A stretch of 63,239 nt of DNA, the filler included, from Pseudobdellovibrionaceae bacterium (lineage in GTDB: Bacteria; Bdellovibrionota; Bdellovibrionia; Bdellovibrionales; UBA1609): NCBI GenBank assembly GCA_030591685.1. It is 4 parts of 4 records of this genome, joined end to end, with 100 filler letters (N's around TTAATTAATTAA, not from the genome) between each part and the next. Parts side by side here need not be neighbours in the genome. Positions count along the whole stretch, not along the records: positions 39,483 to 58,285 come from JAUVAX010000043.1; 3 more parts are not named here. One strand, written 5' to 3'. A program made the position numbers. Shown here one piece after another: positions 48,001 through 54,000 of the stretch. The first letter of the stretch is position 1; each line of letters starts with the position of its first letter.

Positions 48001-51000
48001 AAGATGGAGAATTTTGATGCCAAGTGAGAGTATTAGGTTAAACAGGTTGAGTCAAAATTTATCATGCAGCACAGTATATAAATGAAGTATGTTTTTTTAG
48101 TGTTGATTTTTTTTAGTTTTGAATCCTATTCAGCTCCTGTTGTGGGTAACAAGGCAGCACAGGATTACTTTAAAAAAAGACAGTCAGCACCAGAGGTGCG
48201 GGCGAGAAAAAAAAGAGCCCCCAGCGGTCAAACTCATTTGTTAAATATTTATATGGGCACAAACTTGCGAGATGACTCCTATAACTGGGGGGCACAAGGG
48301 GGCAAAGATGTGGGCACTCTCTCCATGGGACTTTCTTACCGAGTGGGCGAGTGGGTAGGTTCGACAGATTTTTTATTACTTATGGATTTTAGCTCCTTTA
48401 GCCTCAAAGAGGGCTCAGCAAATAAGGCGAGTTTTATGCCCATGGTGACCTTTCCGGATGTGAAAAGTCGATTTCCACTTTATTTTGGTGCGGGCTTGGG
48501 CTTGGGTATCTTTTTTGAGCAACTTAAAGGGGAGTCATCACTCTCTATTGACTATCAGCTGGTTGCGGGGGCTCGTTTTTTTGATGTTCTTGATGGGATG
48601 GGGTTGTTTTTTGAAAGTGGTATTAAAAACCATGTTCATATACTGAGTGACGGGCAGATGAACGCTGTTTTTGTTAATCTAGGTACAATTTTCCTATTCT
48701 GAATTAATGTTTTGAGCCCATCGTGATGTATGCTACAGCCTATAGATCTATGAAATGGCACAATCATTTAACCCTACATTTAATTAAAGCCCTACAGGAC
48801 TGTTTTGAGTCGGATTACTATGCTGACAAGGTCATTGAGTGGCACTTTAAGAGGCAAAAAAAATGGGGATCTAGGGATCGTCGGTTTTTTGCTGAAAATT
48901 ATTATGAGCTGGTCAGGTACTGGAGAAAGTATGTGGTGCTCTCGGGCCACAGTTGGTCCTGTAATTTAAAATTACCCCCCGAAAGTTACAACCTTATTTT
49001 AGCCACATTTTTATATGACAAGTATGGTGAGCTACCTGATTGTGTAGAGTTTAAAGAGTTTTCAAGTAAAAAATTTGAGGCCAGAAAAGATGAGTTAACA
49101 GACCTTAAAGAGGTAGAGTCTATCCCCGATTGGCTACAAAGCATGGGGACTGAAATTTATCAAAAAAAGTGGCCTGATCTTTTACATCAGCTAAACACCC
49201 CGGCGGTTATTTATTTAAGGGCAAACACCTTAAAAGCAACGGTCAGTGAAGTTGTGAGGCAATTAAAAGCAGAGGGCGTGGCTGCAGAACCATGCCCGGA
49301 GGCGGGCACCCCAGGCATTAAACTGCTGGAGCGTAAAAATGTTTTTATTTTGGAGCCTTTTAAAAAGGGACTATTTGAGGTTCAAGACCTGGGTTCACAG
49401 GTTATCTCTGAGTTTTTAAAAGTTGAAAAAGGGCAAAGGGTTTTAGATGCTTGCGCTGGCGCTGGAGGGAAAACACTTCATATAGCGGCTTTGATGAAAA
49501 ATAAGGGCAAGGTGATAGCCTCTGATATTCATGAGTGGAAGCTCAAAGAGCTCCGTAGGAGGTCCTCTCGTGCCGGAGTGGACATTATAGAGTGTAAATT
49601 ATTAAATCAAAAACTAATAAAGCGCCTTGCGGGCTCAATAGATAGGGTTTTGCTGGATGTACCCTGCTCGGGGCTTGGTGTTTTACGCCGAAACCCAGAC
49701 ACTAAATGGAAGTTCACCCCTGAGCGTTTAGAGGAGTTAATTAAAATTCAACAAGAAATTTTGTTAACAAACAGTCGAGTTTTAGAAAAAGGAGGCGTGC
49801 TTGTGTATGCAACATGTAGCCTCCTGCCACAAGAAAACCAAGATCAAGTGCAGTGGTTTTTAAATCAGAGCCCAGGCGTGTGGAAACTCGATAAAGAACA
49901 ACAGCTACTCCCGGATCAGTTTAACAGTGATGCTTTTTATATGGCTCGAATTTTAAGGGTCAAGTAAAGTCACTTTGTAATAATGTAAATAGCAAGTCTC
50001 ACAATGGACTATGTAAAGTCTACAGACTTGTTACTTTTACTCTTATGAGTCTGATAAACAGACCCTATGGGGTTTGAAGTTATCACCCCTTTTTTGTAAA
50101 AACTCCCCACCAATTGAAATAACTACCTTTGCAATTATCAAGCATTTACGGTAACTTAACTCATTAACTCATCGCATTGTAGAACGTTCATCATATGTGC
50201 ATGTCTCCCCAAAAGCCGTGCAAGATTTCTCTAAGGAGAGTTTTTGAAAACACTGAACTTACAATTTGTTCGTACTCTGTTAAGTTTGGCTGTGTATATG
50301 GCTGCCTCGGTTTCCTATGCTGAGGTGAAGGCTCGAATAACTTCTATTAAAAATGAAAGTGACACTCGTATAGTCACCCTTCATAACGGTGAAAAAGTAG
50401 AACTCAAAACAACGATTAACTATGCTTTTTTAAACACCCCTCAAAAAGGAGCTCTTACCAGAAGAAGCCGAATCAAGGCTTTTGCTGGCTATATGGCCGG
50501 CAGGATGGATGATGTTTGGAAGAGTAACTCAGATGCTTCGGTTGAATTTTTAGTCCTTCCTAGGGGCAATATTGATCAGGTTTTTGATCAAATAAATAAT
50601 ATTTACTCCTCAAAGCGCTGGATGAATAAGAGATACCGCCAGATCATGCACCGGATTAGGGGTGATAAAATGGACGCCTCACACATTATTAAAGATGAAA
50701 TGGCCTGGGAGAACCTCTTAAAGTACGATCCTAATATGCCATCTGAAGATGTCAAAAAGTTGCCAGATGATTTGTTTGACGGTTATTTATTAGCTCATAG
50801 GATACACACCGGCAAAGAGCATATTTTGATAGGTAATTTTAGACCTCGCCCTATGGAGCGCATGACAAATATTTTGGCCACAATTCGATTTTTTGTTAAC
50901 GGGGCTGTTGTGCACGCTTCTACTTTATACACGGGGGTCTTGGCCCCAGATGCCACAAGCCTTCATGCTTCGATGGTTGCGGCCCCGGCGGCCTTCTTTG

Positions 51001-54000
51001 GTGCGGCTATGCAAAAAAATACAAATAGAGTTTCAAATTTTGTCTCTAAGTATAAAGATTTTAAGATCATTGATAAAATGGGGTTGAGCCATGATGCTTC
51101 TCATGAAGTTCAGTACCTGTTAAGGCAAAGTGTGTTCTCTTTAAGCTTTATAACTCTTTTGAGTGCGGCGGTTGTGGGCGTGAACCACTACTTTGATTTA
51201 AATGCGGCCGTTACCTTTGAGGGGCTAATGAGTACAGGGGTTAAGGCTGCAGGGCTTTCAATGTGGGCCGGATACGGGTTTCAAAAGTTTATTTATGACA
51301 GGCACAATCATGAGACGAAACCATCTCCTCGTAACTATTCAATCAACGCTAGAAATGAAATTAATATTTTTATGTTAAACTTATTTGTAACCGTCGGGCA
51401 GATTTCTTACCAGCTGGCCGCTCATGGTTTGAACCCTGAGGTGGCAACTGGGTCAACAGTATTTCTTGGTGTTATGGGGGCCACAGGCTTAATGACTTAC
51501 CTCAAATTTGGTAAAAATGGGCTGGCCAGAAAATATCAAAATTTTGAAGAGAACCTTAGGAGAAAAATGAGAGGCGGAAAATATGAATCAGCAGTGAGCT
51601 GGGTTAAAAGAGAAACCAGACTGAGCTCACGTATGATTTGTCATAATATTTTTAGTGCCCAATAATCAGGGACAAGCCTTTTTAAGACCACTACAATCAA
51701 TAGGTGTTTTCTTTAGGACACCACCGCTTTTATAGCTTGAACAGGGCTTTCGTATCCAAATGAGATATCAGTATTGTTTAAAATATTAAGGGCTGAGAAT
51801 CAAAAGACGTTAGCTTCCCAGCCTGTACTGATATGAGAAGAGTATCTAATATATGGGCAATTTATCTCAACTTGCTTTAAAATTAAGATATGGACCGATA
51901 TAAAAATATGAGTTTTAAAGGGGTGCAGCAGAGCCTGTTTATTGTTGGCTTTATGTCTCTTATCATGGGGGGCTTTCAAAACTGTGCTGAGCAGCCTTTA
52001 CCCACCGACGAGGGGGGTATTGCCATTGTTGAGGGCGGAATGGTCCAAATTGTAGATCAGTGGTATGAGGGGAAATTGGTTTTTGTTGAAAGTAATTTTG
52101 AAGTTGATGAAGTAGATACAGAGGCCACTTTACAAGGCTTTTGCCAACGGCAGCTCGCTGATGGGGAAATTTTTGATTGGAACCTGGTGACTCTTGACGG
52201 GCAAAGCATCCTTTTAAGTGGGGACAGTGTTTGTACTGGGGGCGGCTTTCAGGTGAATTTAGACAATATTAAAGAGCTGAGCTGTGATGAGAGCTATAAA
52301 GTCCATGTTCAGTCTTCAGACGGACATGAAGATGTGATGTTTCTAACAAAAGTCTGCTCTTCTTAAAAATTAAAAAAATTAGAACTTAAAACTTAAGACA
52401 AATTAAATTCTATAGGTTGCCCTTGAGGGGTTTCGTTTAAATCATCATTTTGCATGACAACTGTACCCCTAATAATGGTGTGCGTGGGCCAGCCCACGAC
52501 ATTTTTACCGTCAAAAGGGGTCCATCCGGATCGACTGGCAGTGCTTTTATTAGTAATAGTTTTAGATTTATTTAAATCAACAAGGGTCAGAGTCCCCTCA
52601 AACCCTTTTGCAACAGCCCCTTTATTTTTAATTTTAAATAATTTACAGGGGTTAAGGCACATAAGCTCTACAAGTTTAGTCAGAGTGAGTCTCTTATGGT
52701 GAATATGGTCGAGCATAAGGGGGACCGATGTTTGAACACCCGTCATGCCAGAGGGGGTTTTGGGGTAAGTGCTCTCGAGTTTTTCTTTAAGTGTATGAGG
52801 GGCGTGATCAGAGCCAATAATGTCAACAGTGCCCTCTTTGACCCCTTGCCAAAGCCTGTTTTGATGATCTATCCCTCTGATAGGGGGGTTCATTTGAGCG
52901 AGTGTGCCGAGCTTTTCATAACACTCTGGTGAGCTCAGGGTGAGGTGCTGAGGGGTGCACTCTACACTGACGAAGTCTTTATTTTCTTTTAAATAATCCA
53001 TTTCTTGCTTTGTTGTTATATGTAAAACATGGACGGGTCTGTTATGCTTTTTCGCCAGATCAACAATGCTTTGAGTGGCGTTGAGGGCGGTGATCTCATC
53101 TCGCCAAACAGGGTGGAGGCTGACGTCTCCGGGGTTTTTTTCAACAATGGACTTTCGCTCAATGAGCCTGTTTTCATCCTCACAGTGTACGGCCATGCGG
53201 CGAGAACCATTTTTAACGACCTCTTCAAGGAGTCCGGACTCTTTAATGAGTAAATCTCCAGTGGAGCTCCCCATAAAGACCTTCACGCCACTGCACCCAG
53301 GGAGACTTTCAAGCTCCTTAAGTTCGTTTACGTTTTCAGGGCTGGCTCCGATGTAAAAGGCAAAATCTGTAAAGCATCTGTTATTGGCGAGTTTCAGTTT
53401 ACTGTCTAGGTCCTTAGAGGTGGTTGTTGAGGGGTGAGTGTTCGGCATCTCAAAAACGGCGGTAATGCCACCGAGGGCGGCCCCTTGAGTTCCTGTTTTT
53501 AAGTCCTCTTTGTGTTCAAGACCAGGTTCTCTAAAGTGTACCTGTGTGTCGATAAGCCCAGGTAAAATATGGAGCCCTTGGGCATCGATAGTGTGGTCAG
53601 AAAGAGCTCCCTCTAGAGGTCCAACCTCAACGATTTGCCCCTTATTAATAGCAACATTTGTTTTGGTCTCAGTAACACTAGCCAAAGGTTGAGAGGGGTC
53701 TGTTGGTACGAGTACGGTGCCATTTTTAATAAGTAAATCATAGTTTTTCATAAATATGTTCTAACACAACCTAAAAAAAAGTACTAATTGAGAATGAGGG
53801 GGTCTTATGAATTTTACCCCGGTCAAGTGAGGTATTTTGCAGACATAAAAGGCCATGCTGTGATGGGGGGGGGAACTTTAGTCATAAAAAAACAGGAGCT
53901 CGATGGGCTCGGTGAGTTTGTAGAGCCCTGGTATAGGACTAATGTTTATAAACTTTTGAATTTCTTGACCTTTTCGCCCTTATTCTGGGAGAATTAACTC

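Follow-up and report, generated by a model that had tools for sequence, protein, structure and literature searches.

A five-residue tag, C-x-x-[LIV]-F, is shared by unrelated exported proteins of this Pseudobdellovibrionaceae bacterium (assembly GCA_030591685.1) and occurs at either end of the chain, which confirmed the observation made in the genome-wide survey's note. On balance, the tag is probably a second sorting signal, which would be read after Sec export and would route effectors into prey. No description of it was found in the literature searched, in agreement with the note, which had called it undescribed.

Occurrence of the tag in the window and in the genome

The window, i.e. the whole stretch of DNA that was analysed (63,239 nucleotides, filler included), contains two carriers. 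The example chosen by the note, g975 (positions 50244 to 51665, plus strand), is an ORF of 473 aa with no known family, and the protein is presumably exported according to its signal-peptide-like start. No match was obtained in Pfam, NCBIfam or ESM Atlas, and the structural model gave no fold match at E<=0.001. A Sec signal peptide of about 26 aa with an A-x-A-like end was predicted by a hydrophobicity heuristic at 50244 to 50321 (plus strand), and the same kind of start was present in three homologues with a full start. Residues ~204-422 (50853 to 51509, plus strand) form a hydrophobic helical half in a low-confidence model (mean pLDDT 51) and are possibly membrane-inserting. The sole Cys of g975 is residue 466 (codon 51639-51641), 8 residues from the end, and it opens the tag C-H-N-I-F (residues 466-470; 51639 to 51653, plus strand). 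Five homologues were found at E<=0.001, and the four that reach the C-end all carry C-x-x-[LF]-F, as reported in the note. The second carrier, x953 (36233 to 37147, minus strand), is a protein of 304 aa with a signal-peptide-like start and no family; its tag C-S-L-V-F (36245 to 36259, minus strand) lies 8 residues from the end, and the mature chain has no other Cys.

For the tag counts, 2565 genes were called anew, and the 1970 complete proteins with 150 aa or more were tested. The motif was present in the last 12 residues of 16 of these proteins, with 1.8 expected from the interior rate (p 8e-11); the excess claimed in the note (16 against 3.1) was thus reproduced. Three hundred shuffles of the tails gave a mean of 1.5 and a maximum of 6, and at the C-end none of 21 control patterns with other spacing, reversed order or another first residue reached p <0.01. 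The Cys of the 16 C-end carriers lies 6-11 residues before the end, and the chain stops 1-6 residues past the Phe. Behind a signal-peptide-like stretch the motif was found in 18 of 755 proteins, compared to 2.8 (maximum 7) after shuffling. Three of these 18 matches were chance-like and two were carriers masked by wrong start calls; the genome contains about 15 N-type carriers. The hydrophobicity heuristic used to call signal peptides fires on 48% of all proteins and on 15 of the 16 C-end carriers. Enrichment was confined to free ends. Both ends are used across families, and in none of four families examined was the tag seen to change ends.

In 23 of the 29 carriers listed, the mature chain had no Cys besides that of the tag, close to the earlier count of 22 of 30. 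The bodies of the C-end carriers contained 4 Cys in 7606 residues instead of the 68.8 expected, a 17-fold loss, and none of 20000 length-matched draws was as low.

Conservation in homologues and other genomes

The tag survives in distant homologues, as the note had stated. In the Bd2922 family a Cys was present in the last 20 residues of 120 of 120 homologues, with a hydrophobic residue at +4 in 119; in the alignment this Cys is invariant in all 120, and it is kept while the preceding linker varies. Of the homologues of the AAA+/M41 carrier, 27 of 29 retained the tag, as did 29 of 29 complete loci of the ABC1-kinase (query counted) and 20 of 20 Fic loci whose 5' end is intact. The strict pattern was derived from this genome, and its [LIV]-F ending is one dialect only; the conserved core consists of the Cys and a hydrophobic residue at +4. 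Searches with the glutamate dehydrogenase and GGDEF carriers in 41 genomes gave weak partial matches only, which were taken as housekeeping copies.

The note's concern that other predators might lack the tag stood only in part. Among 843 proteins from the genus Bdellovibrio there were 4 C-end carriers with 0.6 expected, so the tag is present in this genus and not private to one lineage. Four samples of 200 kb each from other genomes yielded one N-type carrier, in a single sample, and no strict C-end motif. The long dialect of the tag showed no enrichment when unbiased stretches were scanned, among them 400 kb from the family that has this dialect.

The pattern was defined on the same genome and the signal-peptide call is loose, and both points might suggest chance and a post hoc choice of the pattern, or a capping helix with a structural role, and in either case no common function. 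This explanation is hardly credible and is already largely refuted by the C-terminal excess with its 21 flat controls, by the loss of Cys, and by the independent recovery of the tag in another genus and in four protein families. Furthermore, the carriers have unrelated folds, and in one confident model (pTM 0.91) the tail had a pLDDT of 59-68, compared to about 95 for the core.

Cargo, gene context and expression during predation

The claim that carriers include enzymes needing cytoplasmic substrates was borne out. Six of the eight annotatable carriers were nucleotide-dependent (GGDEF, ATP-grasp, ClpA-like, glutamate dehydrogenase, AAA+/M41 and Fic), and many carriers require ATP, GTP, NAD or FAD. 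Some are hydrolases with no need for a cytoplasmic cofactor. Only 0-1 of 73 untagged exported proteins were nucleotide-dependent, a figure obtained with a stricter cut-off than that for the tagged set and with 17 of 204 rows dropped. Housekeeping paralogues of the carriers do not have the tag.

The carriers are scattered single genes, and the upstream gap was at least 100 bp for 88% of them versus 48%. Their neighbours are unrelated; the 113 neighbouring proteins contained no machinery in common, and no promoter word common to the upstream regions was left after correcting for the number of words tested. One adjacent, translationally coupled pair of an N-tagged and a C-tagged gene was found (L295). 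This pair, together with a single free Cys per chain at an exposed end, would suit a disulfide lock, in which the tags of subunits or partners bond to each other outside the cytoplasm and so link the chains covalently into homo- or hetero-oligomers. Such a lock is improbable because the carriers are otherwise scattered among unrelated neighbours and because a single sequence common to about 30 unrelated proteins does not specify partners; it also leaves the nucleotide-dependent cargo unexplained.

Five carriers were mapped to strain HD100 (Bd1649, Bd2033, Bd2345, Bd2839 and Bd2922), four of them picked blind; 3 of 7 strict carriers of the Bdellovibrio sample did not map, and the HD100 list is incomplete because the scan covered 1.2 Mb of one genome only. 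All five were present on the sheet of about 240 predation-induced 'predatosome' genes of PMC2797640. For the four blind-picked carriers this corresponds to p=2e-5 for 240 listed genes out of an assumed total of 3560, and to p 0.002-0.008 if the list holds 20-30% of exported proteins. The fold-changes on the array were small (1.2-1.9), with t-test p values of 0.21 for Bd1649 and 0.057 for Bd2033. In the proteome of PMC12546842, Bd2033 and Bd2922 were among 40 entry-peak proteins and rose at entry, followed by a steep drop by 3-4 h; Bd1649, Bd2345 and Bd2839 were absent from the quantified table. Bd2033 is also a transposon-defined predation gene according to PMC2797640. The proteome of killed, uninvaded prey (PMC11003981) yielded none of the five carriers; two control tags were present there, and Bd1649 was looked up by locus tag only. 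The supplements of the Tn-seq paper PMC6561027 gave 0 matches for six identifiers, in a search run without a positive control.

As expected of an effector delivery signal, unrelated carriers are expressed at attack time, namely all five of those mapped. Because the traced Bdellovibrio genes with the tag are induced during prey invasion, the tag may be an address label into prey. The note's interpretation was supported in part; the reading as a portable tag on predator effectors was strengthened by the conservation across families, the Cys loss, the nucleotide-dependent cargo and the expression of all five HD100 carriers during predation.

The steep fall of Bd2033 and Bd2922 after entry and the failure to find the carriers in killed, uninvaded prey are also consistent with handling or turnover in the predator envelope, and protease and chaperone signals typically sit at a free terminus. 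A periplasmic chaperone or protease would then hold, silence or clear potentially self-toxic enzymes, and the tag would play no part in entry into prey. This is quite unlikely, since it offers no site at which ATP-, GTP- or NAD-dependent enzymes could act, and since a degron needs neither an invariant Cys nor the loss of other Cys.

Proposed route and relation to known signals

As a second sorting signal of Bdellovibrionota, the tag could act as follows. Sec would carry the protein over the predator inner membrane, and the signal peptide would be removed. A short free-standing helix, predicted in the model for the observed sequence Cys-x-x-hydrophobic-[F/L], would be exposed at whichever end is free. 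A common envelope partner might bind its hydrophobic face and grip the Cys, most probably through a mixed disulfide, and would pass the protein into prey near entry, a timing seen for the HD100 genes. The disulfide would open unaided in the reducing prey cytoplasm, the site of ATP, GTP, NAD and FAD for the cargo. Other Cys may have disappeared since they could form wrong pairs with the handle or fix the cargo in a fold that could not be threaded. Within the sorting-signal reading, a disulfide handle is slightly favoured over another chemistry or non-covalent recognition, and each is a tentative proposal. With similar reserve, it may be suggested that Bdellovibrionota have an undescribed pathway by which Sec-exported effectors pass from the predator's periplasm to the prey cytoplasm, with a lone-Cys helix at either end as the signal and release by disulfide reduction on arrival.

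The part of the note that spoke of a sorting or modification tag gained no machinery: the searches identified neither a receptor or carrier nor a modifying enzyme. A comparison of 184 exported proteins with odd Cys numbers with 2 Mb of relatives gave no convincing receptor candidate. BD_b_sandwich proteins are co-expressed at entry, but were rejected as the partner because of even Cys counts and the lack of a homologue in this genome. The genes for Lgt (2 copies), Lnt (1 full-length) and DsbA-like proteins (3) were unremarkable, and an R-x-P-[AS]-[SA] motif showed no clear enrichment.

PEXEL in Plasmodium and RxLR in oomycetes are five-residue second signals behind a normal signal peptide that direct unrelated effectors to the cytoplasm of another cell. 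They are eukaryotic, N-terminal only, free of Cys and of other sequence, and the likeness to the tag would be an analogy of logic and not homology. The A chains of AB toxins are disulfide-tethered, and a lone terminal Cys could likewise tether an enzyme to a delivery part until the reducing cytoplasm is reached. In AB toxins, however, each enzyme has its own adjacent delivery gene, whereas here one tag is found on about 30 scattered genes and no delivery partner was found. The Cys of the CaaX prenylation signal is fourth from the C-terminus, while the tag Cys lies 6-11 residues from the end and N-end forms occur. The Cys of N-type carriers is near the mature N-terminus, as in lipoprotein signals (lipobox; Lgt, LspA, Lnt), but it has no lipobox and lies several residues past an A-x-A-like site, and C-end forms exist. 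The polar spacer and the A-x-A-like site before this Cys do not agree with a signal for SPase II, in which the lipobox Cys follows the hydrophobic stretch directly and begins the mature protein, and lipoproteins in the same list have no such spacer. Some homologues carry a lipobox-like Cys plus the tag.

In a predatory lineage, each genome encodes dozens of unrelated proteins with MYXO-CTERM (TIGR03901) or a related Cys-bearing C-terminal sorting signal that is processed by myxosortases (PMC11980579; bioRxiv 10.1101/2023.06.07.544157). They likewise combine a Sec signal peptide with a short second signal containing an invariant Cys, a feature seen here in 120 of 120 homologues. The transmembrane helix and Arg-rich tail are missing from the 16 C-end carriers, the tag occurs at either end, and its cargo consists of nucleotide-dependent enzymes and not of surface receptors. 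NCBIfam CTERM models matched 0 of 27 and 0 of 8 carriers, and the CFI-box-CTERM model NF041770 gave no match among the carriers searched.

The MYXO-CTERM Cys has been proposed as lipidated, possibly via Lgt (in a passage of PMC11980579). If the tag Cys were similarly acylated or diacylglycerylated after export, it could, with the two hydrophobic residues, hold the enzyme on a predator or prey membrane or on a vesicle. Two Lgt genes are present, and in the short helix of the model the Cys, +3 and +4 fall on one face. A lipid anchor is nevertheless unlikely, as the Cys has neither a lipobox nor an adjoining membrane helix, several Bacteriovorax-type homologues with a lipobox-like Cys keep the tag too, a single full-length Lnt was present per genome in five of five tested, and anchoring alone gives the cargo no ATP or NAD. 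None of the systems compared offers a counterpart to a post-Sec signal that could be used at either end.

Bdellovibrio secretion is called 'largely unexplored' in a passage of a 2025 paper (PMC12622784), and hypothetical genes make up about 72% of those induced during predation (PMC12034629). The tag offers a sequence rule for choosing candidate effectors among such hypothetical genes. For the delivery of Bdellovibrio enzymes into prey, a five-residue tag on five named HD100 genes provides a testable handle, since HD100 is genetically tractable and open to point mutants and reporter fusions. If the delivery pathway is true, the tag would identify the effectors encoded in any genome and would let chosen cargo enter prey bacteria.

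Terminal motif and lone cysteine in the source genome

The source genome comprises 2.66 Mb in 98 contigs, several of which make up the window (positions 39483-58285 are contig C52). A self-trained model called 2565 genes (ids x#), among them the example carrier g975 (x1003; 50244-51665, + strand, 473 aa). The motif C-x-x-[LIV]-F was present within the last 12 residues of 16 of the 1970 complete proteins of at least 150 aa, versus 1.8 predicted by the interior rate (p 8e-11), so that the excess claimed in the genome-wide survey's note (16 versus 3.1) was borne out. None of 21 control patterns gave p <0.01 at the C-end of the same proteins, and shuffled tails yielded a mean of 1.5 and a maximum of 6 motifs. 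Behind a signal-peptide-like stretch the motif occurred in 18 of 755 proteins (2.8 expected); 3 of these matches were chance-like and 2 were carriers masked by start calls. That the tagged proteins have no shared function is very improbable.

A signal-peptide-like stretch was found in frame in 28 of the 29 listed carriers, in agreement with the note's statement that nearly all have a signal peptide, but the call is a loose heuristic that was positive on 48% of all proteins. The sole exception was the ClpA-like protein, whose start lies at a contig edge; an overlapping ORF on another contig opens with such a stretch. The ClpA-like carrier (C62:27-1916 with C96:2-1240) and the Fic carrier (C23:1-1402 with C95:20958-22760) are longer than called, because both are apparently split across contig ends with overlapping sequence. 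Two further N-type carriers, at C81:7795-8310 (-), protein-kinase-like by eye, and C87:15785-16549 (+), have their true starts upstream of the called ones.

The tag Cys was usually alone, as the note had also stated. The bodies of the 16 motif-selected C-end carriers contained 4 Cys in 7606 residues, compared with 68.8 predicted from other exported soluble proteins, and none of 20000 length-matched draws gave an equally low count. The tag Cys appears to be kept as the lone Cys by selection. As a role for this residue, a disulfide lock between carriers is improbable. Cys as the second-last residue was common in this genome (19 of 720 signal-peptide-like proteins and 20 of the 1250 others), exceeding neighbouring positions in the former group.

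The protein g975 ends in C-H-N-I-F followed by three residues, and the tag Cys is its only Cys. It belongs to no family. Of its 5 homologues, all 4 that reach the C-end kept C-x-x-[LF]-F at 23-39% identity, confirming the note. The structure model was too weak for naming a fold; its hydrophobic helical half may insert into a membrane. A small exported Cys-rich gene lies downstream (51890-52366); it and its neighbours on both sides are in the same order around the g975 homologue in another genome (G022, L002).

Conservation across Bdellovibrionota

The carrier with AAA+ and M41 peptidase domains had matches in 32 of 401 genomes of the phylum (source genome counted), from nine families. Among 29 homologous loci, 27 had a Cys no further than 12 residues from the end; F or L stood at +4 in 26 of these and the strict motif was present in 9. 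The other 2 loci lacked a terminal Cys. The ABC1-kinase carrier of the genus Bdellovibrio sample G019 had the tag in all 29 complete loci (query counted; one further locus was cut). For the IucA/IucC-like carrier of G019 the best 120 of 299 homologues were examined; a Cys occurred within the final 20 residues of all 120, followed by a hydrophobic residue at +4 in 119 and forming the strict motif in 57. In a Fic family the tag followed the signal peptide in all 20 loci whose 5' end was intact (10 more were cut): 12 strict, 1 C-x-x-L-Y and 7 in a long form. These homologue counts describe conservation and are not significance tests, because kin are not independent. No switch of the tag between ends was seen in any family examined.

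The long form, in which the hydrophobic pair lies one turn further on, was present in Fic homologues from family f22 and in lipoprotein-like Bacteriovorax homologues of the IucA/IucC-like carrier. The f22 homologues of the Fic protein Bd2033 (L272-L280, L285, L290) form fusions with a long region on their N-terminal side, which is in many cases rich in Cys; the ORFs measure about 1430-2070 aa, and their 5' ends lie beyond the loci read. In L277, L284 and L286-L289 the long form is preceded by an Arg-x-[Pro/Gly]-Ala/Ser-Ser-like stretch, with a lipobox-like Cys ahead in 5 of the 6; this stretch could be a cleavage site freeing the tagged N-end. In unbiased samples the long form was not enriched, and the stretch not clearly so.

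The note's finding of no enrichment in other predators did not hold for the genus Bdellovibrio: G019 (1.2 Mb, 843 proteins) contained 4 C-end motifs versus 0.6 expected, and 3 N-end carriers. Four 200-kb samples of other genomes (G052, G006, G308, G436) had no strict C-end motif and one N-type carrier, in G006. The tag load varies among genomes.

Cargo and expression during predation

A clear Pfam family was assigned to 8 of 26 carriers: GGDEF, circularly permuted ATP-grasp, ClpA-like AAA+, glutamate dehydrogenase, AAA+ with M41 peptidase, Fic, PLD-type nuclease and carboxylesterase. Six of these eight families need ATP, GTP or NAD(P), which supports the earlier view that carriers include enzymes for cytoplasmic substrates. 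Housekeeping paralogues of the carrier enzymes had no tag. Carriers were scattered single genes with unrelated neighbours, and no common promoter word was found upstream of them. Two N-type carriers lie within a cluster of four flagellin genes (C23:6990-19729, L017). In another genome (G104, L295:1330-3506) the stop of an N-tagged alpha/beta hydrolase gene overlaps the start of a C-tagged exported transglutaminase-domain gene, forming a two-gene unit with tags at opposite ends. The source genome also encodes a second, longer Lgt of 358 aa with an internal insert (C73:9633-10709, L194); the other Lgt gene adjoins lspA.

Of 204 exported G019 proteins, 187 were scanned. Of the 17 left out, 6 carried the tag, 2 had been covered by an earlier scan, 3 were pilin-like and 6 looked by eye like false signal calls, three of these last being nucleotide-binding enzymes. 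A Pfam family at E<=1e-8 was found in 73 of the 187 untagged proteins, commonly peptidoglycan enzymes, subtilases and binding proteins, and at most one (Ppx-GppA) had a nucleotide-type fold. Three of the 6 tagged proteins were nucleotide-dependent (p 0.001, or 0.007 with the dropped rows), but for two of the three the assignment relied on a looser cut-off or on the fold. That such cargo is specific to tagged proteins is suggestive only.

Five carriers were tied to proteins of B. bacteriovorus HD100, in whose sequences the tag is present. CAE79524 (C1 peptidase), CAE79880 (Fic), CAE80164 (ABC1 kinase) and CAE80621/Q6MJD9 (FAD-binding) were matched to Bd1649, Bd2033, Bd2345 and Bd2839 by name, gene order and row spacing, and CAE80700/Q6MJ61 is Bd2922 by direct assignment of Q6MJ61. 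From Bd1649 to Bd2922 the accession steps were 356, 284, 457 and 79 and the table steps 357, 284, 458 and 79. Three of the 7 strict G019 carriers were left unmapped. The predatosome sheet of PMC2797640 ('Predatosome-up in Bd, not in HI', about 240 genes) lists all five mapped carriers. Four had been picked by motif before any expression table, while Bd2033 was sought after a Fic protein was seen in an entry-peak list. For these four, p was 2e-5 (3560 genes assumed), or 0.002-0.008 under a hypothetical background with 20-30% of exported proteins listed. The array fold-changes of the five were small (1.2-1.9; p 0.21 for Bd1649, 0.057 for Bd2033), and the untagged exported glutaminase-like Bd2842 showed no induction (0.87 and 0.85) in the same accessible data.

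In the available tables of PMC12546842, the 40 proteins that peak at entry include Bd2033 and Bd2922, both of which have dropped by 3-4 h; Bd1649, Bd2345 and Bd2839 are not in the proteome table. Bd2033 is reported as a transposon-defined predation gene in the accessible part of PMC2797640 and is among the genes common with Bacteriovorax marinus in that of PMC3526173. In the proteome of prey that had been killed without being invaded (available supplements of PMC11003981), two control tags were found but not one of the five; these carriers are therefore probably not the proteins that kill prey before invasion, or else they had decayed. Handling of the tagged proteins on the predator side is a reading of low probability.

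Possible function of the tag

Unrelated proteins carry, at a free end, a lone Cys that is conserved and has a hydrophobic pair at +3/+4; the tagged set has lost its other Cys, has nucleotide-dependent cargo and is expressed in the predation phase. In the model of the IucA/IucC-like carrier (pTM 0.91) a short helix begins at the tag Cys, and the tail has a pLDDT of 59-68 versus about 95 in the core, whose fold matches AcsD and other ATP-dependent NIS synthetases (E 9e-12). With the tail predicted outside the confident core, a free handle fits better than a structural cap. A tagged protein would be exported by Sec, its tag recognised by a shared partner and its Cys held covalently, and the cargo would be released in the prey cytoplasm. 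Delivery into prey is somewhat favoured as the function. The note's sorting or modification tag for predator effectors is in line with the predatosome listing of the mapped carriers, but no partner or enzyme acting on the tag was found among the candidates looked at.

A lipid anchor on the Cys is unlikely. The tag was rejected as a lipobox and as a CaaX box, and MYXO-CTERM, which has a membrane helix and a basic tail according to the available part of PMC11980579, was ruled out by the absence of both. NCBIfam sorting models did not match the carriers. No description of the tag was found in the open literature, in keeping with the note, although subscription journals and bioRxiv supplements, outside this scope, could hold one; the accessible parts of PMC12419801, PMC3271064, PMC12622784, PMC10792529, PMC12034629, PMC8616854 and PMC12750041 do not mention it. 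The tag is real and widespread, and HD100, a tractable strain, now supplies named predation genes that carry it, with delivery into prey as its proposed function.
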